DNA from: a virus | IMG/VR virus record: IMGVR_UViG_3300005841_000032 | Coordinates: 32,001-96,000 of that record | Reading direction: 5' to 3' (one strand) | DNA length: 64,000 bases | Shown here: positions 2,247 to 57,215 of the stretch, piece after piece | How positions within the stretch are numbered: position 1 is the first letter of the stretch | How the letters are laid out: every line of letters begins with the position of its first letter | Translations under genes and position numbers: made by a program | Notes under the pieces: model-generated | What the model saw: only the letters and a program-made list of their open reading frames with translations | Database searches by the model: none | Told to the model about the DNA's origin: nothing

Positions 2247-4698
2247 CTGACTTTAATGGTTTATTCCTGATTATTTGTTTTTTCTCAACGTCCCAAAATT
2301 TCTTATTAGTTTCTGCTACATCTATAAATCTACCTTTAGCTACATCTTGCGCAATAGAGAATGTTGATTGCCAACTTTCAATCCTATAATGTCGCTTCTT
2401 TTCAATATGAAGTCTCATTACACTATTGTCATATTCATCCTCTGTTTGATTCAGAGTAAGCGCATAAGCAAATGGATCAAGTGTGGCTTTTAAATTTGAA
2501 ATATCATTTCTTGTTATTACCCAATTGGGATTATTCCAAAATTCTTTCTTTATATCGCTTGCCTGAGTTACCGCAGCTACTCCTATTTTAAATTCAGTAG
2601 CTATATTTATTATCTTTTCACTTGTTGCTTTTTTTCTTGTAGATGTTCCGTCCTGACCTGTGCTATATCTTTTACCGTCACCGGGGTCAAATCCCTCCAA
2701 AAGGTCAAATAGAACTAATCCTATCGGAGCTTCTTTTAACAAATCTATTAATATATTTCTACAATCCAAAATGGATGCGTTGTGAAATTGTTCAAATACA
2801 TGCACATAAATTTCACCTGCTTGCGCTAAATATGCTTGTTTGGCTTTTTCTATTTTTTTAATATCTGCTCCCGATAAATCACCTCTTCTAATATCATGTA
2901 CTTGCACCCCCGTCCACATTGCATCATATCCGTTTTCTATTTCTTCTTTAGTGCTATCGCCCGATGCAAGATGAAGGACTGGAATGCCTCTGAATGAAGC
3001 GTGAAAACCTAATGAGCGAAGCAAAGTTGTGTTATGAGTCACAATGCAATGGTCAGTTAAATAAAGACTCGTTGAATTATCCACTGCTATGCATTGCGTT
3101 TGCATTTTACCAACATATTCTATTTTATCTATAAATCTAGGCGTTAAATAGGATGTTTTAGGAACCACTCTTATTGCTTTTCTTTTTAAGAAGAATGGGT
3201 TAATTTCATTAGGTAAATTAATCATAACGTCATAAGCCAATCTCTTGGATATTCTTTTTTCACCCCTGTATGTATATTTTTTATATCCCCTGTTAACAAT
3301 GTGGCCGGTTCCACCTAATCCATTCACCAATTCTCTCACGTCTTCAGCTAATTTAAAGGAACTTGTATGAAATATTGAACAAGTTCCTTCTCCAGATAAA
3401 GAGCCATCAGTATCCATTAAGCCTCGTAATAAATTCACCCTATCATCTAATGATGAATATAAATAATTACATGGAATAAATTTATCGTATGAATGAATCT
3501 CTCTACCAAATAATTTCCTTAACCTACTTCCCAATTTGCAATAAGATAATCTATAGCTACATTTATCTATATGAATAGGCTTTATTTGCAGTTCATTTCC
3601 AACTCTTTCCAATATTTCTTTATCAATTGTGCTTATAGTTGGCGTTTCAAAAAAATGTCCATCTCCAATAAGCGCCCCCATAGTATATGGAGGTATTGGT
3701 AATTCTTTTTTATTAAAATTAATTGGTTTACAAATTGGCAGTTTATAATTCAAAACATTTTCGCGATCCCTGCACATGAAAATTCTTTCTTTTCCAATCA
3801 TTTCTTTCGTATTCAAGATAGTGTGTCTATCTGGGTCAATAAAGGTGGATGCATATCTCTTAGAGTCGGCTACTCTTTTTCTATCATTAGCTGTATACAC
3901 TTTCCATAAATGATTTTCATCACAATCTACGTATACCCCATCTGAAAAATGAATTCTGTATACATCTCTAATACCTTGAGGGAAAACACCAATAACTTTT
4001 ATCGTTTCACCTTTTTCAGATAAAACGCTATCTCCAACTTTTATTTCACCCATAGTGGTAAATCCATCAGGTGTATAAATTTTAGAATATAATGGTTGGG
4101 CTTTACCGCTTCCAGAACGAGCTACTACCAATAATCCTGTCCCGGCGTCAATCCCCCCGTGGGTTAAATGATCAAATGCTGGTAACCCCGTTGGTATCTT
4201 TGTTGTGCTGAAATCTCTATTCTGTCTTTCGTATTGCCGTTTATCGAATTGCTCATAAATTTTACTATACTGTTTTCGCTTTAATGAAAACTCATGCAAT
4301 TCTTTGTAACCATCTTTTGCTTCCACGTAGGCTTTATCGTACTCACCTCTCGCAAATAATTCCTCTGAACCTTTATGTAATTCAATAAACTTTGCGCGTC
4401 TTATATACTCTTCAAATGTTTCAAGTATGGTATCTTTCTTATCATATATATTGCATTCAGCAATCTTAGCAATAATACTAGTCGCGTCACGTGAATTAAC
4501 ATGTTGACTTATTAACCCAACTGTTGGCGTTTTATTATTTGCACTATGAAAATCAAAGATATATTTAAATATCTGTTTTTCAGGCTCGCTATTCAAATAC
4601 GAATATTGCAAATGAGCTTTAACAATCTCTAAAATGTTTTTAGAAACTATACAAGATTTTGCAAGTTCTATTATAAACTCACTATTTAACTGACTCAA
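2206..4698 (-). CDS. dnaB: replicative DnaB-like (SF4) helicase containing an intein
   Basis: IPTGLPAFD, Walker A ARSGSGK|T interrupted by an intein, LVLFDLLE Walker B, AVTQ motif. Confidence 0.85.
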   Translation of the reverse strand: MSQLNSEFIIELAKSCIVSKNILEIVKAHLQYSYLNSEPEKQIFKYIFDFHSANNKTPTVGLISQHVNSRDATSIIAKIAECNIYDKKDTILETFEEYIRRAKFIELHKGSEELFARGEYDKAYVEAKDGYKELHEFSLKRKQYSKIYEQFDKRQYERQNRDFSTTKIPTGLPAFDHLTHGGIDAGTGLLVVARSGSGKAQPLYSKIYTPDGFTTMGEIKVGDSVLSEKGETIKVIGVFPQGIRDVYRIHFSDGVYVDCDENHLWKVYTANDRKRVADSKRYASTFIDPDRHTILNTKEMIGKERIFMCRDRENVLNYKLPICKPINFNKKELPIPPYTMGALIGDGHFFETPTISTIDKEILERVGNELQIKPIHIDKCSYRLSYCKLGSRLRKLFGREIHSYDKFIPCNYLYSSLDDRVNLLRGLMDTDGSLSGEGTCSIFHTSSFKLAEDVRELVNGLGGTGHIVNRGYKKYTYRGEKRISKRLAYDVMINLPNEINPFFLKRKAIRVVPKTSYLTPRFIDKIEYVGKMQTQCIAVDNSTSLYLTDHCIVTHNTTLLRSLGFHASFRGIPVLHLASGDSTKEEIENGYDAMWTGVQVHDIRRGDLSGADIKKIEKAKQAYLAQAGEIYVHVFEQFHNASILDCRNILIDLLKEAPIGLVLFDLLEGFDPGDGKRYSTGQDGTSTRKKATSEKIINIATEFKIGVAAVTQASDIKKEFWNNPNWVITRNDISNLKATLDPFAYALTLNQTEDEYDNSVMRLHIEKKRHYRIESWQSTFSIAQDVAKGRFIDVAETNKKFWDVEKKQIIRNKPLKSDEKPLDKTRRPVT
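3031..4101 (-). mobile_element. class 3 intein (357 aa) with LAGLIDADG homing endonuclease
   Basis: Starts AQPLYSKI (Ala1), block B CDENHLW, block F TQCIAVD, ends VTHN|T; MGALIGDG and LLRGLMDTDG LAGLIDADG motifs. Confidence 0.9.
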
Positions 4699-5210
4699 AT
4701 CTTTTCCTGTTTTTTCTTGATAACCATTATTTGTTTTTTGATCAAATGATTAACGTGAATTGTTTTCGTTCTTTTCCAATCAAACCAAACTCTTTCGAAA
4801 TCTTCTTTAGGTAACTTCTTAATTTTTCCATCCCACGGATCAAGTAAGAAAATATAGTTATCATTAATTCCAGCAACTACCGATGAATGACCGTTAGGGG
4901 TTCCGTTTTCTGTTGCATCTCCCGTAAACCAATCTACTATTAATGGTATTTCTTGCGCAAGATAATATTTAATATCTTCAAAGGAGCTATTATTTTTTAT
5001 TTTACATGATAAGCCGTAAGACTCTACGGCTTTTTTCATGTTAGTGTCATTTGTTCCTCTTTCGTATGTATGTTTGCTTCTTTTTGCTATCTCTTCTTCA
5101 CTCGCTTTTATTCCATAATACGATAAAACTATCCTAATAGATGCAGGACCACAAAGAGAATCATCGCTTTGTTTATACTTTCTTAATTTTAGCAGTTTGG
5201 GCCTAGGCAT
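4695..5210 (-). CDS. C39-like (papain-fold) cysteine peptidase
   Basis: QSDDSLCGPAS catalytic Cys, GHSSVV His, LLDPW Asp. Confidence 0.8.
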   Translation of the reverse strand: MPRPKLLKLRKYKQSDDSLCGPASIRIVLSYYGIKASEEEIAKRSKHTYERGTNDTNMKKAVESYGLSCKIKNNSSFEDIKYYLAQEIPLIVDWFTGDATENGTPNGHSSVVAGINDNYIFLLDPWDGKIKKLPKEDFERVWFDWKRTKTIHVNHLIKKQIMVIKKKQEKI

Positions 5211-31714: not shown

Positions 31715-32518
31715 TTAAAGTGCGCCAATAGATATACCCCGATATCTCGCAATAAGGCGAGGAATAGTAATATCCATATCTTTTTCATATTGCACAATTC
31801 TACTAGAAAAAACCCCATACATTGCGCTGGCAGAGGTACTAATAGACTGACTGACGCCATCAACAGAATTCGACACACCTGTCACCCCAACGCCAAATAA
31901 AATGTCACCCATCGCATTGAACATATTTATTGTGGCTTGTTTACCAATCACATTCAATATGTCTGCCGGAATACCTCTTTTACAATCTCCAATTCCCGTT
32001 AAATATTTAACGCTCCAGTAGTTTGGGATTGTGGTATTACCTAGAAATCCCATATAAGGAGTTACACCAATAAATACAGCCGTACTTGATAAGGTTGTAG
32101 TTGGTCCATTAATCGGTACAAGATTTATTGACCTCCAAAATAAATCAGGGTCACTACTTTTCTTTGTTGAAATCTGACTTTCTGGATAACTAATTTGAAG
32201 TGTAGTGTTAATAAACCCCTGTACACTATATGCTTTTATTGCCGGATAAGTTGTAGGAATGTATCCAAACTTTCTATAATCATTATTGTGATAATCTCTT
32301 CCTTCTTCTACCGCTTGCCTTACAAGTTTTATTGAAAGATAATTCTCTATTTCTCTTTGAGCTGCTTCAGTATAAAAATTTATTGTTTCCTCAGGGATAG
32401 GATTTCCAAATTGATCCTGTAAGTCAATGCCAATAAAATAAAGATTCTTTATCTCAGTTGCATTGTAAACTAAGCCTGTATTTTTTGAATATTTAATCGA
32501 TAAGACAAGTTCAGCCAT
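31715..32518 (-). CDS. head-tail connector (adaptor) protein
   Basis: AAQREIENYL, YLTG...IPADI, SVDGVSQS. Confidence 0.65.
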   Translation of the reverse strand: MAELVLSIKYSKNTGLVYNATEIKNLYFIGIDLQDQFGNPIPEETINFYTEAAQREIENYLSIKLVRQAVEEGRDYHNNDYRKFGYIPTTYPAIKAYSVQGFINTTLQISYPESQISTKKSSDPDLFWRSINLVPINGPTTTLSSTAVFIGVTPYMGFLGNTTIPNYWSVKYLTGIGDCKRGIPADILNVIGKQATINMFNAMGDILFGVGVTGVSNSVDGVSQSISTSASAMYGVFSSRIVQYEKDMDITIPRLIARYRGISIGAL

Positions 32519-37199: not shown

Positions 37200-38501
37200 T
37201 TACTTTGAAATAAATTCATTCAATTGATCATTTGTCATTGCTGCTCTTTTTTTATCAGCTTCCCATCTATTGCAACAAGCATTTGGATGAATTTTATTGG
37301 GAGTATCTCCATCACTATCCTTATCAACTTTTAAACATGACATTTTATCAATAATAAAATATTCACATCTCTTACATGAAAAGCCAGTATTATTTTCATT
37401 ATACCCCGCTTCTTGTTTAGACACTATTCCAAGCCAAGGTATTATAGGAGTATTTTCTCCCTTAGGGTCCATATGCATCCAAAATCCACAAGATCCAAAT
37501 GGCTTTATACTTTCAGAAGCCCCCAACACAGCACATTTATTTGATTTGTTTTTACTAAAGACGCATTTATCGCACGTATACTGCGTTTCTGGCCTAAACA
37601 TATATAAAGCAGCTTCCTTAGGGATTAGATTGGTCTTTTTTTTTACTATTTCAGTATCGCCTAAACCTTTTTCAATCTTATTAATTATACTCCATGTATT
37701 CTTGCATGACTCTTCGTCCATGCCATAAGTATCAATTAAATATGTAAGAACTTCTGCTTTGCTAAGCTCTTCTGATTCTATAGGTGTATCTTTCTTCTTT
37801 TTTTTCTTTTTGCCTTCTAACGAACCTTCTTTTAATGATTCTTGAGTTAGCGGTTTATCTATTGTTTCTGTTCCGGTTATGTTTCCGGCTGCCATTGCTT
37901 TTTCGATATTTAATTCCTTGTCAACCGTAGTACGTTCACCATTTTCATTTACGGTATCGATAATAAAATCACTACCGATTTCCGTTTCATATTCAGGAGA
38001 TTCACCTTTAGTAATTATTACACTAGTGCCCTTGCATTTTGGATGAGGAGCGATAGCTAATCCATGAATTGTACTTTTTTTAATTCTCCTCTTGTCTTTC
38101 GGGTCACGCAATAAACCTTCACCCTCTATAGAGTACCCTAACTTTCTGCTAGAAGAACTTTTAGATAATGTTTTTGTTAAATCAAATACCTTCTTTGCCA
38201 TTTCTGATCCAGAATATAATTTTGATTTAACCATTAGTTTACCATCTTTTTTTTCAAATGAAAGCGGTTCACCTATAATCATTGATGGGTCTTTGTGCCC
38301 CAAATGGTTCCAGTTAACGAAGCCGCGGTGCATTAACTTAGTTAAGTCCATCCCATCAACTTCCAAAATATCTCCATCTAAATCGGCTCCCGTAGTTTCA
38401 TCACTTACTACTCCGCCTACGATCATTACTTCGTCACCATTTTCATCCGTAGACTTTTCAAGAATATCAAAGGGTACGAAATAGGAAAATTTATCATTCA
38501 T
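37200..38501 (-). CDS. prohead protease with C-terminal Cys-rich extension (likely start MNDKFS)
   Basis: DLDGD, NWNH (His), LGYSIEG (Ser), AIAPHP; ATG overlaps the upstream stop. Confidence 0.85.
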   Translation of the reverse strand: MNDKFSYFVPFDILEKSTDENGDEVMIVGGVVSDETTGADLDGDILEVDGMDLTKLMHRGFVNWNHLGHKDPSMIIGEPLSFEKKDGKLMVKSKLYSGSEMAKKVFDLTKTLSKSSSSRKLGYSIEGEGLLRDPKDKRRIKKSTIHGLAIAPHPKCKGTSVIITKGESPEYETEIGSDFIIDTVNENGERTTVDKELNIEKAMAAGNITGTETIDKPLTQESLKEGSLEGKKKKKKKDTPIESEELSKAEVLTYLIDTYGMDEESCKNTWSIINKIEKGLGDTEIVKKKTNLIPKEAALYMFRPETQYTCDKCVFSKNKSNKCAVLGASESIKPFGSCGFWMHMDPKGENTPIIPWLGIVSKQEAGYNENNTGFSCKRCEYFIIDKMSCLKVDKDSDGDTPNKIHPNACCNRWEADKKRAAMTNDQLNEFISK

Positions 38502-39555
38502 AATAACTCCATTTAAATTTTTTACATAAGCCATCTCTTCTAATTGAATTTCCAATCGCAGATGGCGAAACATCAAATTTCTTAGCTGCTGAACTCAATG
38601 ATTTAAATACCTCAATTATTTCAAATGTTTTAGGATTTAATTGAGCTACTGATTTCTCAAAGTGAGGTGCGGGTATGGACTTGCCTTTATTCCAAACAGA
38701 CTTATCGGCATTCAATGTTACCAATTTGAACAATAACTCTTCGCTAAAATCTTTTTCTCTAATCCAAATGCTCTTATTACAACTGTTAGTTTTGCCCCTT
38801 GCATTGTTATTAATAGCTACCGGATCAATGCTATAAAATTTTCCTGCTAATAGAGATGAATCAAATTCGTTTATTTTATTCCCCTTCAAATCAAATTCGA
38901 ATAGCTTGTAGCCCTTTTTCTTTGCAAGAATAATTTGTCTTAGTTTTTCTTTTGTTTCATCAGACTGCTTTTTACCTAAATGACTTTGTCTATTTCTTTC
39001 AATTTGGTCAGGCGTACACTTTTTACCAAGCATGCCGCTAGGTTTCCCTAAATGCTTGATTCTATTTTTTTCTTTTGCTTCGTCAGTATGCTTGCCTTTA
39101 AATCCAGTTGACCAAGTGCCATTTTTTAATTTAGTCGCTAAACTCTTTTCTATTGACTCTTTAGGCATTTTATAGCCAGCGCTAGTTTCGCCTCCATTAG
39201 TGAGATTAGTTAGCGGCCCCCTTTTTAAATCTGCTCGGCCAATAACTTTTACTAAATATTTTTCACTCTGGTTAGCAACGTTATTTGATAATCCATTATT
39301 CAACTGAATAATTATAGGCTCCAAACCTTCATTAATAATTGCCCTTATGGTATTTTGTTTGTGACTATTTTTTTTATAAGTTTCGCTAAATGATTCCCAT
39401 AGATGAGCCGTTTTTCTATCACCCTCTCCACGACCAACATAAAAAGGTTGCGCTGGAAGAATAATATCTATTCCGGGAATTTTATATAGAATCCTTTTTC
39501 TAGGATCGCAGTAGACGTAATTGTAAAATCGATTAGACGTGTTAACTAAGTTCAC
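38494..39555 (-). CDS. GIY-YIG-like homing endonuclease with NUMOD3/NUMOD1 (likely GTG start)
   Basis: YNYVY...FYVGRG, LTNLTNGG, HTDEAKEK, SDETKEKL. Confidence 0.8.
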   Translation of the reverse strand: MNLVNTSNRFYNYVYCDPRKRILYKIPGIDIILPAQPFYVGRGEGDRKTAHLWESFSETYKKNSHKQNTIRAIINEGLEPIIIQLNNGLSNNVANQSEKYLVKVIGRADLKRGPLTNLTNGGETSAGYKMPKESIEKSLATKLKNGTWSTGFKGKHTDEAKEKNRIKHLGKPSGMLGKKCTPDQIERNRQSHLGKKQSDETKEKLRQIILAKKKGYKLFEFDLKGNKINEFDSSLLAGKFYSIDPVAINNNARGKTNSCNKSIWIREKDFSEELLFKLVTLNADKSVWNKGKSIPAPHFEKSVAQLNPKTFEIIEVFKSLSSAAKKFDVSPSAIGNSIRRDGLCKKFKWSYYE

Positions 39556-39649
39556 GTCCTTAAAAATACGAAAGTCTATAAAAACAAAAACCCCTTGCCT
39601 ATTTCTAAGCAAGGGGCCGCAACTCCTTTTCAGTTTCTATTTTACATTT

Positions 39650-52681: not shown

Positions 52682-52921
52682 TTATTTCAATGTATCTCCT
52701 ACTTCATAATTTTTAGCAATGCTGTTCGCAAATTGATCTGAGTTAAGCGTTGCCATTCGACCCGCAGAATCTCTCAATATAATAGTACAATAAGTTGTTC
52801 CTGAATAATTATTGCAATCTTCTGCAACAACTATAATAGGTCTTTTCATACCGCCAACTCTTTGTTCAAAGGTTATATTGCAACCAAAACAAATAAGTAC
52901 TAACAGTAATATCGTTTTCAT
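52682..52921 (-). CDS. small putative lipoprotein
   Basis: MKTILLLVLICFGC lipobox-like. Confidence 0.5.
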   Translation of the reverse strand: MKTILLLVLICFGCNITFEQRVGGMKRPIIVVAEDCNNYSGTTYCTIILRDSAGRMATLNSDQFANSIAKNYEVGDTLK

Positions 52922-53223
52922 TTTATATCTATTTGAAATGATGATGTTGAATAATATTTTACTGGATGTTTGCTTTTATACTTTATTGTGTCGCCGGTTA
53001 TCTCAAACTCATACCCTTCTCTTTTTAAATTGTCTATGAATTCTTGTTGCTGTTTCATTAGTTCACCTTTCAGTCTCAAGTTATTCGCGCAACACTCATG
53101 GTGATAAAAATAAGGATTGCCGGGACTATCGTAACTATGTGGATAATGATAACTGCCAACCTCATTTAAATTTTGAGGATTGACAAACTTACCGCAATAA
53201 TAACAATTAGGCAATAGTGCCAT
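52918..53223 (-). CDS. hypothetical protein, possible Zn ribbon
   Basis: CYYC...HHECC. Confidence 0.5.
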   Translation of the reverse strand: MALLPNCYYCGKFVNPQNLNEVGSYHYPHSYDSPGNPYFYHHECCANNLRLKGELMKQQQEFIDNLKREGYEFEITGDTIKYKSKHPVKYYSTSSFQIDIK

Positions 53224-53910
53224 TTGCTTTTAATCTTTCTAAAACCTTTTTATGGTACCCTCTAGTGCATTTGCCAACATAAACATCAAATACCGATCCC
53301 ATATCTAGAAAAGTATGTTTGTCTCCAAACTCATTATACAAAACATCTATCATAAAATTAGCTGGCATTGAGGCGACAAACAAAACTACTACATTCTTAT
53401 TCAAGAATAATAATCGCTTTACTCTATCTAAAATTTTTTCTCTTTCTAACCAACAATTCTTTTCAGGTATTTCAATATGTAAGTTATAGAACTTTCCTAA
53501 GTTTTCCAAATACTTCGGCCCAACAAGTATAACTGGATCATCACGCTTCGTTAATAAATCAAAAAATTGATCAAAATATCCTTTTATACTTGCATGGTGA
53601 AAAACATCAGCATTTACCCAATTGAGATTTTCAAGATCATTATCTTTTAAAAATTTCTCTATTTGCTTAGGGTAGCGGTCCTCTTTTGCAAATCGCTGCA
53701 TTCCCAAATAATATTTTGGCTTGCTTTTAAGTACATTAGTTAATGCTTCGCCCATATCCTTAAAATAAATATGACCATCTGTATTCTTGTAATTTTCTCC
53801 ATCTATTTGGAGTAATGCATTCCATTCTCCTTTCAACCGTCCCCCCACCTAGAAAAGGCGAGAGGACGCTTAAGGATTAAATTGTTAATAATTGTTTCAA
53901 AATCATTCAT
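53207..53910 (-). CDS. GT-D-fold (DUF1792-like) glycosyltransferase split by an 8-nt gap (recoded or pseudogene)
   Basis: 25 codons ending FSRWGDG-TGA; after 8 nt the frame resumes EWNALL...FLDMGSVFD. Confidence 0.7.
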
Positions 53911-54428
53911 ATATAAATCTAAATTCTTTATAAGTATTTCTTTTTTCTTGAATTGCTTTGCCAACCATATATATTGACAAATTAATTGCTCTAGCATGAT
54001 TACCACTGATATAATTACCCAAAATGTCTCCATTCATATTGCATACGGTAATAGATCTATAATTTTTCCTATGATGTCCAGCATTAATAGCATGATTCGT
54101 ATTTTCTTTTGGCGTTAGCCATTTCTAAGTTAGTAGAACTATTATTTAATTTATTTAAATCAATATGATTAACTTCTGTTTTATTTATTAAATCATCATT
54201 TTTAACAAATGCTTTAGCAACAAGCCTATGAACCGATCTAGTTACTTGTTTATTTCCATTTCTCATTTTAACAATTAAATAGCCATTATGTAATTGCTGC
54301 TTGATATTTACATTCAATTGCATCTTATTCATTTTAGAACCGCGAATAAATCTTTGAATGTTGCCTAAATTACTTACTTTATAAAAGGGAACCTCTTCAA
54401 CGATTCTCCAAATTTCTTCTTCACTCAT
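53903..54428 (-). pseudogene. NUMOD4-HNH-NUMOD1 homing endonuclease with a +1 frameshift
   Basis: YKVSNLG, VHRLVA, VNHID..KLNN; removing one A at 54122-54124 restores NLEWLTPKENTNHA and a C-terminal domain ending at 53903. Confidence 0.8.
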
Positions 54429-54766
54429 TTATTCGCTTTAGGCTTTACTTCTTTCTTTTTCTTTTGATATGCAATGGTACTATCTGTTACGCTCAATAAT
54501 TTTTCTACTTCTGCAAGTGGCGTATTTGAGTCTACTATAATCTTAATATCCTCCATGTACAAAGAGTCAATATTCCTGCCTACTTTTTCATACTGAGCTT
54601 TCAGTAATTTTTGCTGATTCTTATATACTTGTAATTTTGCTTTCTGGTACTCAGTTAAAACAATTACGCTTATTGTATCGTTTTTAACTTCTTTGTTTTT
54701 CTTTTGAGCAAATAATACATTGCAAGTTACAATTTGCAAAACGATCAACACTAGTATTTTTTTCAT
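54425..54766 (-). CDS. secreted hypothetical protein
   Basis: Signal-peptide-like MKKILVLIVLQIVTCNVLFAQ. Confidence 0.55.
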   Translation of the reverse strand: MKKILVLIVLQIVTCNVLFAQKKNKEVKNDTISVIVLTEYQKAKLQVYKNQQKLLKAQYEKVGRNIDSLYMEDIKIIVDSNTPLAEVEKLLSVTDSTIAYQKKKKEVKPKANK

Positions 54767-54975
54767 TCTATAGTTATTTTATTTTGTTTTCTCCATTCAA
54801 TAAGACATGCTTCAAGTCCAATAAATGATTCTATTAGTTTCATCATTGGAGTAGTATAAGATCGTCTATAATCTCTTTCCGAAAATAATTGCGGTGTATA
54901 GTTTTTCAATTCTTTAGGCCATTGATAACGATTCAGGTCGCACCACATTTTAGCCAATTTATCTTCCTTTTTCAT
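54763..54975 (-). CDS. hypothetical protein
   Basis: 70-aa ORF, coupled. Confidence 0.45.
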   Translation of the reverse strand: MKKEDKLAKMWCDLNRYQWPKELKNYTPQLFSERDYRRSYTTPMMKLIESFIGLEACLIEWRKQNKITIE

Positions 54976-55036
54976 TTAATTTCTATATAATGTTTCGTTT
55001 GATTAAAATTTTTCATTGCCCCTTTAATCCATTATA

Positions 55037-55207
55037 TTAATTGTTCCCATTATCAAAGTAACTTCTTATTCCCATATAGCATGCAATAAATATTAATAGT
55101 ACTATTATAACCACGGATACATTTGCTGCAATATCATCATATTTAATCATAAGAGATATAAGCCCAACCGTTATAAATATAACGCCTGTAGTTTTTAAAT
55201 CTTTCAT
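55037..55207 (-). CDS. 56-aa two-TM membrane protein (absent from the ORF track)
   Basis: MKDLKTTGVIFITVGLISLMIK...; ATG overlaps the upstream stop. Confidence 0.45.
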   Translation of the reverse strand: MKDLKTTGVIFITVGLISLMIKYDDIAANVSVVIIVLLIFIACYMGIRSYFDNGNN

Positions 55208-55818
55208 TGTCCTTTCAATCCGTTATTTCCCGTTCTAACTACTACTATTGGTTCGAACTTCAAAGTTAATACTTTTTCTACATCTTTTATCCATCTATAA
55301 TCTGCTGCCTTATACCCATCCCAATTAGCTATATTATTTTTACTATGATGCAAAAATAAACAAGGTGCGCCTATTTTACCTTTAACTATCTTTTTATTTT
55401 CTATAAAATCTTGTGGTGGTTTTGGTCTGCCTTTCCGCAACATCTGACAAATTACTCCTTCTTCTGGATTTGTTAACTTTGTCGAGATCGTCTCAAGGGA
55501 AAGACGGCTAAATAGAAAATCATCGTTGTCCAGAAATAAAAACCAGCCTTCGTTAACTAAATTCTTTAATTGATTAGAATAAAGATTCCAATAGAAGGGG
55601 TAATTCCTGTCTATCTCGGCATCGATTATCCTAACATTAAAAGAATCATTCTCTGTCTGTTTTTCAGCATCTTTCCTTGCTTCTTCTGAATCACAGCAAA
55701 TTATAACATTTAAATTTTTTACTATTGTTTGTTCTCTGACCGAATGTAAACAACGTCCCAATAATTCAGGACGATATTTATTGCGAATGAGAACGTTTAT
55801 TAGGGGCTGACCGATCAT
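55204..55818 (-). CDS. GT2 glycosyltransferase
   Basis: INVLIR, SVREQT, FLFLDNDD, ADYRW. Confidence 0.8.
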   Translation of the reverse strand: MIGQPLINVLIRNKYRPELLGRCLHSVREQTIVKNLNVIICCDSEEARKDAEKQTENDSFNVRIIDAEIDRNYPFYWNLYSNQLKNLVNEGWFLFLDNDDFLFSRLSLETISTKLTNPEEGVICQMLRKGRPKPPQDFIENKKIVKGKIGAPCLFLHHSKNNIANWDGYKAADYRWIKDVEKVLTLKFEPIVVVRTGNNGLKGQ

Positions 55819-56288
55819 TTCAATACCAATTCAGACTCTTTAACTAATTTGGTATTAAATCGTTCTATTACCAATTCAGCAGTAAATTTACTGCCGCCTT
55901 TTCCAGTACATGACTTAGAACAATATGGCCCCGCTTTACCTCTTTTTCTTTCAGTTAATACCCAATGTGCCTTTTCTCCTTCCCTGATAACATCTTTGTC
56001 GCAAACAGGACATATAAAGCCTACCATTAATCTTTCAGCGTCTTGCAAAACATGAGTCAATCTATCTACAATTCTTAAATTACTTAATTCATCATTAGTA
56101 AAATCTTGATCTATATGATCAATAGTTTCATTGCCCATCAATTTTCTACCAATATGATGTTCAACTAGAAATTTTGGATAGCTAACAGTTGTGCGCTTCC
56201 CATTATTATCGATGCAAATATGCTTACGTCCATCCTTTCTTAAATAAGGCCCATTTATATGGCCTGTATATAAATTACTTTTAATCAT
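55815..56288 (-). CDS. HNH homing endonuclease with C-terminal Zn finger
   Basis: IDHIDQDFTNDELSNL; CPVC...YCSKSC. Confidence 0.8.
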   Translation of the reverse strand: MIKSNLYTGHINGPYLRKDGRKHICIDNNGKRTTVSYPKFLVEHHIGRKLMGNETIDHIDQDFTNDELSNLRIVDRLTHVLQDAERLMVGFICPVCDKDVIREGEKAHWVLTERKRGKAGPYCSKSCTGKGGSKFTAELVIERFNTKLVKESELVLK

Positions 56289-56292
56289 ATTG

Positions 56293-56379
56293 TGCCCCGG
56301 GAAAGAATTGAACTTTCACGATCATTACTGATCACAGAATTTTAAGTTCTGCTTGTACTACCATTTTCAACACCGGGGC
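56293..56379 (-). tRNA. tRNA-Leu(TAA)
   Basis: GCCCCGG acceptor, CAGAA-CTTAAAA-TTCTG anticodon arm, long variable arm, GTTCAATTC T-loop. Confidence 0.88.
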
Positions 56380-56493
56380 AAAAATAAACAAAGAAGCTCT
56401 ACTCTGTTGGTCTTTTTACAAGGGCTGGAATGTGACACCTTTTCTCTGTTTAAATACAGACGCGCTCTCTGTTATACATGCGTAATTAAGAAG

Positions 56494-56567
56494 TAGCGGG
56501 AGCCAGACTCGAACTGGCGCATAAAAGCTTATGAGGCTTTCCTTCTACCAACTGAAAGTATCCCGCG
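56494..56567 (-). tRNA. tRNA-Met(CAT), initiator-like acceptor stem
   Basis: CGCGGGA...TCCCGCT-A with a 1:72 mismatch, AAAGC-CTCATAA-GCTTT, GTTCGAGTC. Confidence 0.85.
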
Positions 56568-56797
56568 ATGTAAAAAAACAAGTGACTGTATGTTTCTAAC
56601 TAATTTGGTTAGATGCCATTAACCCTACAGGTAGGTAATTGCCTATTGACAATATTTTCGCACCACTTGTTTTATTTTTCATATTTCAAAATTAATCTAA
56701 AATATCATTCCAACAAAATAAACTATACAATAAGCTAAAATTCCTCCAGTTGAAATAGTAAAAATGGGCAATAGTGTTTCCCATGTATTTTCTATAG

Positions 56798-57130
56798 CTA
56801 CCATTCTTCTATGCTTGGCTCTGGCTTTAAGTGAGTATGTTTTTCGTTTTTGCATATTGTAGAGATTATCGTTGTTTCTCTCTTATCTAAGTCATTAATA
56901 AAAATTATCAACCCCGTATCAGTATTTTCAAACCAAACTGAATAAAGATCATCTTTACTGCCATTACTTAATACTAAATATTGCTTATTTCTTTTCTCTA
57001 ATTTCAAATGCAAATCAATCGATTGAGATATAATATGTAATGAATCTTTATCTGCAAATAATCCTACTCTTTCATATTTGCATTGCTGTCCATTTCCTAA
57101 AACTACATATAGCCAAAGAATAAATCGCAT
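56798..57130 (-). CDS. hypothetical protein
   Basis: 110-aa ORF between tRNAs. Confidence 0.5.
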   Translation of the reverse strand: MRFILWLYVVLGNGQQCKYERVGLFADKDSLHIISQSIDLHLKLEKRNKQYLVLSNGSKDDLYSVWFENTDTGLIIFINDLDKRETTIISTICKNEKHTHLKPEPSIEEW

Positions 57131-57140
57131 TCAATTTTTG

Positions 57141-57215
57141 AGCCCGTGGATGGAATCGAACCACCGACCTGTTGCTTACAAGGCAAACGCTCTAACCTAC
57201 TGAGCTACATCGGGC
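57141..57215 (-). tRNA. tRNA-Thr(TGT)
   Basis: TAGCTCAGTAGGTTAGAGC D-arm, CTTGTAA anticodon loop, GGTTCGATTCC. Confidence 0.85.

Follow-up and report, generated by a model that had tools for sequence, protein, structure and literature searches.

Translational bypassing, in which a ribosome passes over an undecoded stretch of messenger RNA (mRNA), is established as a process put to use in the gene 60 family of phage T4 and in one yeast mitochondrion, and elsewhere a few candidates are on record (PMC5009743 and the literature searched). The subject of the present work is a further candidate, located in a stretch of viral DNA of 64,000 nucleotides (nt) that comprises positions 32,001 to 96,000 of IMG/VR record IMGVR_UViG_3300005841_000032 and is referred to below as the window. 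It involves a glycosyltransferase gene of the GT-D type, which is interrupted by a stop codon and a change of frame, and a freestanding NUMOD4-HNH endonuclease gene upstream of it. The sequence favours, with a probability of roughly 55%, a short programmed translational bypass in this phage gene that is linked to the HNH gene.

In the gene 60 family, the take-off codon encodes Gly, is preceded by an Asp codon and is followed by a stop codon, which is sometimes UGA. The insert splits a metal site and protects from the nuclease of the cassette, and the endonuclease is often pseudogenized (T4 included) with the bypass retained (10.1101/2022.08.31.505936). In T4, gene 60 and mobA constitute a mobile cassette (Bonocora et al. 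2011, as cited in Manning & Atkins, 10.1101/2022.08.31.505936). The event proposed in the window resembles that of gene 60 in its Asp-preceded Gly take-off codon, the immediate stop, the Gly landing codon and the resumption of decoding at the next codon. As in gene 60/mobA, the insert lies inside the conserved metal-binding motif of an enzyme, and an HNH gene adjoins. An upstream stem-loop that forms as the mRNA exits the ribosome, as described for gene 60 (Wills, Parsawar & Atkins, 10.1101/2024.12.09.627546), is likewise proposed here.

The differences from T4 are also clear. In the window, and in a second interrupted allele represented by the protein P0003, the gap would be 7-8 nt compared with 50 nt in gene 60, and the window has no space for an A-site (take-off) stem-loop or for a mini Shine-Dalgarno (SD) element 6 nt before the landing codon. 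The upstream hairpin of the window abuts the take-off codon, whereas that of T4 is 9 nt away, and it is much stronger; it also appears to be conserved, unlike the 5' stem-loop within the gene 60 family. The take-off codon GGU and the landing codon GGA are not wobble-matched, in contrast to those of gene 60. The host gene encodes a GT-D enzyme rather than a topoisomerase, the endonuclease is of the NUMOD4 plus HNH_3 type, and its gene lies upstream of the whole glycosyltransferase gene without splitting it. Finally, unlike the T4 system, the genome in question makes no use of SD sequences.

Stop-hops and short bypassing in Escherichia coli constructs (Weiss et al. 1987 and later work, as reviewed in Atkins et al. 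2016, PMC5009743) are similar in that, by the account of that review, peptidyl-tRNA shifts from a pre-stop codon to a similar codon a few nt on, with a slow A site as the trigger. Those events are described as unprogrammed, inefficient and synthetic, whereas the site in the window belongs to a natural gene, carries what seems to be a selected hairpin and has been retained in evolution. Other natural cases include the byps of Magnusiomyces capitatus mitochondria, candidates in Streptomyces phages and a 29-nt hop in plaA of Prevotella loescheii; the plaA bypass was never confirmed, and the Streptomyces phage cases have candidate status (PMC5009743, PMC10732093). These are natural inserts neutralized by translation, as proposed for the window, and the mitochondrial case is also devoid of SD sequences. 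The gaps of the byps, however, measure 27-55 nt and the Streptomyces candidates involve a rare UUA codon, compared with a gap of 8 nt in the window; unlike in the window, no strong hairpin ends at the take-off codon in the byps, Streptomyces and plaA cases, and no HNH gene is associated with any of them. The literature searched contained no description of hairpin-abutted gaps of 7-8 nt. The chances appear about even that the locus is in full a minimal HNH-linked bypass cassette, independent of T4 gene 60, driven by a hairpin, with a non-wobble landing in a non-SD host, and kept through ∼32-35% protein divergence.

The interrupted glycosyltransferase gene and its junction

The window is part of a single source contig of 110,427 base pairs (bp) with 33.5% G+C. 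The contig is phage-like and its minus strand is densely coding, with intact open reading frames (ORFs) that reach 1220 amino acids (aa). The break in the glycosyltransferase gene is laid out as follows:

53836 to 53910, minus strand: first coding segment of the GT-D glycosyltransferase, 25 codons, from ATG 53910 to the take-off codon GGT at 53838-53836
53833 to 53835, minus strand: TGA stop codon, immediately 3' of the take-off codon
53828 to 53835, minus strand: undecoded gap of 8 nt, TGAAAGGA, which opens with the TGA
53828 to 53830, minus strand: proposed landing codon GGA, the last three bases of the gap and the first GGN 3' of the take-off codon
53207 to 53827, minus strand: second coding segment, 206 residues, beginning with GAA 53827, which encodes the E of D-x-E, and terminated by the stop at 53209-53207

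The first segment translates as MNDFETIINNLILKRPLAFSRWGDG, ends in SRWGDG and encodes helix 1, strand 1 and the residues R-W-G-D-G, while the second segment holds every other invariant residue of the family. Beyond the TGA, frame 0 contains 20 stops in 234 codons. The downstream ORF lies in the +2 frame and could be read as 213 aa from GTG 53848 or as 209 aa from TTG 53836, ending in either case at 53207. When positions 53835-53828 are omitted, the two frames join into a protein of 231 aa reading ...SRWGDGEWNALL..., which includes SRWGDGEWN; the motif RWGDGEW exists in the window protein only under this condition. The triplets that follow GGT in all frames are GTT, TTG, TGA, GAA, AAA, AAG, AGG and then GGA, so that the gap offers no earlier landing triplet. 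A first-pass annotation of the same DNA had proposed this layout (ATG 53910, SRWGDG, TGA, a skip of 8 nt and a product of 231 aa), and it was re-derived from the sequence in every element; those of its predictions that were open to a check were all borne out.

Two simpler accounts of the gap were rejected. The TGA is an ordinary stop in this genome, where it terminates 38 of the 105 long ORFs, and frame 0 meets a TAG ten codons further on, both of which argue against its decoding as an amino acid. The AAAGGAG within the gap was dismissed as a functional ribosome-binding site, and a mini-SD role is unlikely for it, since the gene starts of the genome lack SD sequences: genome-wide, SD motifs precede 7 of 105 gene starts, compared with a background of 11%. 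This absence suggests a Bacteroidota-like host. The insert itself may have originated by local duplication (GAAAGGA versus GAATGGA).

Homologues of the glycosyltransferase comprise 217-237 aa and read ...FSFSRWGDGEW... without interruption. The joined 231-aa protein was compared by tblastn with 129 loci from IMG/VR and the JGI metagenomes, and the match spanned the junction in a single frame at every locus with upstream DNA (∼125 loci). The motif took the form R-[WYF]-G-D-G-E in 115 loci and R-[YF]-[NC]-D-G-E in nine more, with D-G-E invariant in all 124, and the gapless junctions read GGN GAR TGG. Relatives in IMG/VR, the JGI metagenomes and the GTDB genomes were at most 58% identical, and all were uninterrupted; a tblastn search of deposited phages produced no relatives of the split gene. 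The sole IMG/VR match to the DNA pattern of the junction (L130) was found in an unrelated gene with the in-frame reading ...VNGWLKGEWF... and was set aside as a chance match.

The family profile (alignment A1) matches the DUF1792 structures 4PFX (E = 6e-4) and 4PHR, with rfGDGE aligned to the RFGDGE of the former. The identification of RxGDGE as the conserved GT-D/DUF1792 motif, already made in the first-pass annotation, is thus borne out by its invariance in the family and by this alignment. An AlphaFold2 (AF2) model of P0002, the closest uninterrupted homologue, had a mean predicted local distance difference test score (pLDDT) of 94 and placed a helix at residues 2-12 and a strand at 18-22, followed by the GDGE turn. 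In a Foldseek search with this model the best matches were 4PHR, 4PFX and 5V4A (probability 1.0; template modelling scores of 0.57-0.62). As judged from the model of P0002 rather than from the joined protein, the product of the window gene is predicted to have the GT-D fold, to which the first coding segment would supply a core strand. It shares this fold with the DUF1792 structures, and its N-terminal R-F/W-G-D-G-E aligns with the corresponding motif of 4PFX, but with ∼230 aa it represents a distant phage subfamily. The 213-aa ORF of the window had no Pfam match at E ≤ 0.1, hence none to PF08759, and a precomputed PF08759 match was recorded only on the distant relative P0031. The DXE motif of the GT-D fold binds Mn2+ needed in catalysis (PMC9804384, citing Zhang et al. 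2014). Given the invariant D-x-E and the fold, the 8 nt therefore split the catalytic metal site between D-G and E. A separate 110-kilobase (kb) metagenomic phage contig (L107) encodes tandem GT-D paralogues at 4001-4567 and 4643-5206.

An assembly or sequencing artefact would be the most trivial source of such a break, and the four contigs on which it is recorded may partly share reads. The 209-aa downstream ORF, however, is recorded letter for letter in JGI/IMG (two contigs, 110,586 nt) and in Logan/ENA (110,581 nt), and the truncated HNH ORF of 114 aa and both small neighbouring ORFs are identical in JGI/IMG, Logan and ENA, on four contigs. Identical split ORFs thus come from three sources and from different assemblers, which answers the earlier concern that the 8 nt might be an assembler's slip. 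An insertion of 8 nt outside a homopolymer is atypical of errors, intact ORFs elsewhere in the genome extend to 1220 aa, and the diverged allele P0003 shows the same feature. An artefact is therefore scarcely credible.

Three RNA elements were delineated at the junction:

53838 to 53868, minus strand: 5' RNA hairpin CGTCCTCTCGCCT-TTTCT-AGGTGGGGGGACG, 13 bp with three G-U pairs and a 5-nt loop
53870 to 53873, minus strand: stem extension UUAA, predicted to pair with UUGA (53836-53833) in a 101-nt fold of the single sequence
53809 to 53830, minus strand: 3' hairpin of 8 bp plus one bulge, starting from the landing codon (-8.5 kcal/mol, z = -4.4)

The coordinates and pairing of the 5' hairpin hold as originally described, with the first G of the take-off GGT as its final base. 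Its predicted fold has an energy of -23.4 kcal/mol (z = -5.5 versus shuffled sequences), and it surpasses in stability every other 36-nt fold on the two strands of the 110-kb genome; the runners-up are hairpins with U runs (terminators). Its own lack of a U run, in contrast to the other strong hairpins of the genome, led to its rejection as an intrinsic terminator. The codons that compose the hairpin are rare in the genome (CTC 0.025, GCC 0.12, GGG 0.12, CGT 0.15, AGG 0.15 and GAC 0.22). When KRPLAFSRWGDG was recoded synonymously according to the codon usage of the genome, none of 20,000 sequences was as stable (mean -7.4, standard deviation 2.35, minimum -22.0 kcal/mol). The equivalent 36 nt in the 115 gapless loci had a mean of -6.6 (standard deviation 2.8, minimum -15.5), and the strong hairpin was missing from all of them. 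The antisense strand of the region reaches just -11 kcal/mol, the hairpin being specific to the sense strand because of its three G-U pairs. The junction pattern is far beyond chance. Since rare synonymous codons build the hairpin while the conserved peptide stays, selection must have acted after the break or together with it.

The other two elements are less distinctive. The predicted UUAA-UUGA extension follows a G-G mismatch and covers the stop codon together with the third base of the take-off codon. The 3' hairpin is moderately unusual, as it was matched by 135 of the 20,000 recodings and by one of the 129 homologous loci, and the evidence for it is weaker because conserved residues dictate most of its bases. 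A fold on both strands at C1 106968-107004 (numbering of the whole contig, beyond the window), with -18.4 and -17.6 kcal/mol and no U run following, ranks right behind the terminators in the genome-wide scan.

The second interrupted allele and the HNH gene

The protein P0003 (222 aa) is 68% identical to the window protein and occurs on two Logan contigs, the longest of 117,025 nt. It is known as protein alone, and its DNA was deduced by back-translation. The N-terminus of P0003 is odd (MKTVPIAFLAMGTVEGEW); it resembles the +1 frame of the window, which reads ...SVLSPFLGGGTVE, and therefore looks like a +1-frame reading of homologous DNA. Back-translation settles 28 bases within 42 aligned positions. 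On this basis, all eight determinable pairs of the 13-bp stem are Watson-Crick and the remaining five are possible. Compared with the window, both sides are changed in three pairs (U-G to A-U, C-G to U-A and C-G to G-C), and one pair is strengthened (U-G to C-G); the loop is TTYYT versus TTTCT. Frame 0 is compatible at 12 of 12 codons with the family consensus R-P-[Y]-[S]-F-S-R-[Y]-G-D-G-stop. Since P0003 runs GAR directly into GGN GAR TGG, where the window has an extra A, its gap would be 7 nt and not 8, and this gap is likewise without an earlier landing triplet. The second allele thus seems to be built along the same lines, with a 7-nt gap. When the N-terminal 40 residues of P0003 served as query, no more alleles of this kind were revealed.

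The comparison of the two alleles bears directly on conventional frameshifting, either as slippage of tRNA-Gly by -1 on the G6 run (U GGG GGG A) or as a +2 shift past UG. In the former version, the 3' hairpin, which lies 8 nt after the A-site codon, would act as stimulator, and the product would read ...RWGGRLKGEW.... The -1 slip restores the frame, and the distance to the 3' hairpin suits -1 stimulators. Moreover, runs of at least six G or C are scarce, with four in the 110-kb genome (window positions 4153, 18148, 40015 and 53841), all of them G runs on the coding (minus) strand and none on the opposite strand; the G7 run at ∼40015 is intergenic, and the runs other than that at 53841 were judged irrelevant to the split gene. 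The run at the junction, however, owes its existence to the codons for W-G-D (TGG GGG GAC). At the A site, G GGG GAC departs from the slippery heptamer pattern X XXY YYZ, and the product of the slip would lose the invariant Asp of D-x-E. The refolding of an upstream hairpin favours forward rather than backward movement of the ribosome. A fixed shift would have to be -1 or +2 in the window phage and +1 in the P0003 phage, whose sequence has only GGG(N) in place of a G run. The -1 slip, which had been named in advance as the outcome that would overturn a hop, thus cannot explain P0003, and frameshifting in general is very unlikely.

Removal of the gap at the RNA level is a further option, whether by a nascent hairpin that pushes RNA polymerase so that the 3'-terminal GG realigns, or by processing and ligation. 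A GG repeat flanks the gap in both alleles, and a gap of 7-8 nt may be close in length to the RNA-DNA hybrid, at the rear of which hairpins of the terminator type act. An Rfam search yielded no meaningful match for the junction RNA, and the arrangement of Gly codon, stop and Gly codon would be needless under such a scheme. No case is known to us in which bacterial RNA polymerase skips 7-8 nt of its template in vivo, and this possibility is considered highly improbable.

The upstream endonuclease gene is itself interrupted, and its parts are as follows:

54123 to 54428, minus strand: NUMOD4-HNH gene, first part, from ATG 54428 to the GAA ending at 54123; the unrepaired frame stops at 54086-54084
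54122, minus strand: extra A, the cause of the frame change in the HNH gene; in the intact orthologue P0036, NLEWLTPKENT runs uninterrupted across the site
53903 to 54121, minus strand: HNH gene, second part, in the +1 frame, from TGG 54121 to TGA 53905-53903; open, and 61% identical to P0036

The NUMOD4 match has an E value of 3.6e-7, and HNH_3 scores 18.5 bits versus a cut-off of 24.8, the shortfall being due to the broken frame at 54122. Programmed recoding at this frameshift was rejected, as there is no slippery sequence and no notable structure there. The read-through stop of the HNH gene, TGA 53905-53903, overlaps the ATG of the glycosyltransferase, which agrees with the initial description of a NUMOD4-HNH gene whose restored stop lies over that ATG. 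P0036 is the sole close relative among 586 HNH matches: it is intact, comprises 177 aa with both domains, and is 65% identical over 173 residues, and the matches after it are at most 47% identical. P0036 and P0003 are recorded with the same contig fingerprint (two contigs, the longest of 117,025 nt). The top 120 HNH matches included no contig of the uninterrupted relatives P0002 and P0004-P0010. Similarly, in L050, the closest relative with available DNA (58% identical), the genes for GT2, GT-D and a cupin are directly consecutive without an HNH gene, whereas in the window ∼1.3 kb between GT2 and GT-D hold three small ORFs and the HNH gene, so that the latter is present or absent at otherwise syntenic loci. 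As had been anticipated, HNH orthologue, hairpin and gap co-occur in both interrupted alleles, in the case of P0003 by way of the contig fingerprint, and in none of the gapless ones. The similar divergence of HNH (65% identity) and GT-D (68%) points to long co-inheritance, and therefore to an old cassette without recent transfer. As the analogy with gene 60 and mobA suggests, a further role of the insert is probably to shield the genome that carries it against its own endonuclease.

The neighbourhood contains related elements. A second HNH_3-type gene (157 aa, 55815-56288, minus strand) lies directly upstream of the GT2 gene (55204-55818, minus strand), with a stop/start overlap, and this pair repeats the order of HNH followed by glycosyltransferase; no interruption is apparent in the GT2 gene, whose product of 204 aa is 51% identical to that of L050. 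Five small ORFs of 101, 79, 113, 70 and 56 aa beside the HNH and GT-D genes (52682-53223 and 54425-55207, minus strand) are absent from the L050 locus, and two of them start in a signal peptide-like manner (MKKILVLIVLQIV... and MKTILLLVLICFGC...).

The state of both genes raises the question of whether the glycosyltransferase is simply dead or dying, an insertion of 8 nt (perhaps a scar of the repair of HNH cleavage, or a local duplication) having killed one of about eight glycosyltransferases, with the hairpin serving some other end. Breaks of this sort are mostly pseudogenes, just two interrupted alleles are known, the frameshift in the adjoining HNH gene suggests that the region tolerates damage, and the island has several other glycosyltransferases. 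On the other hand, a hairpin made of rare synonymous codons with the conserved peptide retained requires selection, as would the compensatory stem changes deduced for P0003, and the hairpin is without a U run, unlike the terminators of the genome. In both interrupted genes, the downstream frames are open for more than 200 codons and keep all 18 invariant residues of the family. In a tree computed without the junction columns, the terminal branch of the window protein (0.13) was the shortest in a well-supported clade of eight members, within which P0003 was basal. The downstream frame is thus still constrained, as the claim of a functional gene demands, with no acceleration of rate. Together with the age of the cassette indicated by the parallel divergence of HNH and GT-D, these observations render a dead gene unlikely.

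The proposed hop and the genomic setting

In the favoured sequence of events, the ribosome would translate 25 codons and stall when peptidyl-tRNA-Gly occupies GGU in the P site and the A site contains UGA. At this point, judging from the usual footprint of a bacterial ribosome, the 5' arm and loop of the hairpin would be outside the mRNA exit, while the 13-nt 3' arm (-12 to +1) would still be inside the ribosome. Codon-anticodon pairing would be lost, and the zipping of the hairpin would draw the mRNA from the exit, with ∼-9.6 kcal/mol for the first 8 bp. The tRNA would then re-pair with the first downstream GGN (GGA, 8 nt on) and decoding would restart at GAA UGG. The product would be the 231-aa enzyme with RWGDGEW intact and the junction peptide ...SRWGDGEWNALLQIDGENYK. 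The stop codon directly 3' of the take-off codon (GGT TGA) and the 13-bp upstream hairpin are both features of gene 60-type bypassing that are present here. One rule would suit both alleles, namely landing on the first GGN, directly before GAR UGG, at a distance of 8 nt in the window and of 7 nt in P0003. Pairing within the exiting mRNA has been proposed to drive forward bypassing (10.1101/2024.12.09.627546), and the geometry of the junction fits this model.

The same stop codon could alternatively mark a site of termination and reinitiation, which would yield a split enzyme: a peptide of 25 aa and a protein of ∼209 aa, acting together or separately. Start codons of the downstream frame adjoin the stop in both alleles, which makes this reading possible. 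Restart would occur at UUG 53836-53834, which overlaps the stop as UUGA, a classical stop/start overlap, or at GUG 53848, with the hairpin hiding these sites until the upstream ORF is translated; indeed, GUG and UUG fall inside the hairpin and its predicted extension. Gene callers begin the ORF at the UUG (P0001, P0032), the 3' arm of the back-translated P0003 contains an in-frame AUG 9 nt ahead of the deduced stop, and functional split phage enzymes beside Mob endonucleases are known (10.1101/2022.08.31.505936). Such a split would nevertheless part D from E in the metal-binding motif and, by the P0002 model, deprive the core of its central strand 1 and of helix 1. The two alleles have restart codons of different kinds at different positions, whereas the rule for the hop is identical in both, and no SD-type or A-rich unstructured leader precedes these codons. 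Reinitiation is therefore regarded as rather unlikely, and the hop is preferred.

Several points weigh against a hop all the same. GGU and GGA agree in their first two bases, yet ordinary wobble would not allow a single standard tRNA-Gly to read both, and after re-pairing the third position would be mismatched (G-A); this caveat concerning the wobble base, raised at the outset, stands, and no tRNA-Gly was detected among the phage-encoded tRNAs. The gap of 8 nt is too short for the take-off stem-loop or for a mini-SD at ∼6 nt, and no nascent-peptide signal is known, just 25 codons preceding the take-off site. The HNH gene of the window is itself frameshifted, so that NUMOD4 and HNH do not share one intact ORF. 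Of the only two interrupted alleles, P0003 is recognized by back-translation, from which its DNA and stop codon are deduced, and its proximity to an HNH gene is read from the contig fingerprint. Finally, the tree did not recover the window protein and P0003 as sisters, although an approximately unbiased (AU) test does not reject their grouping (p = 0.17).

The split gene belongs to a glycan island that carries several other glycosyltransferases. Elsewhere in the window, a 372-aa ORF (38494-39612, minus strand) has a GIY-YIG-like N-terminus (..YVGRGEGDRK..) and NUMOD3-like repeats (HLGKPSGMLGKK and SHLGKKQS), and probably represents a further freestanding homing endonuclease; a strong hairpin resembling a terminator is located at 39584-39625. 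Genes for tRNA-Leu(TAA), tRNA-Met(CAT) and tRNA-Thr(TGT), identified with aragorn, form a cluster at 56292-57215 on the minus strand (C1 88292-89215), and a tRNA-like gene for which aragorn called an anticodon of two bases lies beyond the window at C1 7308-7383.

Meaning for bypassing and for the phage

If correct, a natural hop of 7-8 nt would be the smallest system in which to test pairing of the exiting mRNA as the driver of bypassing (10.1101/2024.12.09.627546), as the obvious signals here come down to a stop codon plus a single strong hairpin directly at the take-off codon. Re-pairing of the tRNA could then tolerate a mismatch at the third base, and the locus adds a glycosyltransferase and non-matched Gly codons to the range of candidate bypass sites. 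Hiding an endonuclease target under an insert that is not translated would be a recurrent solution of selfish HNH elements, one that extends beyond T4. Genes of this kind, which all annotation pipelines at present list as truncated ORFs or pseudogenes, would encode full-length enzymes, and the glycan island of this phage would still possess its GT-D glycosyltransferase.

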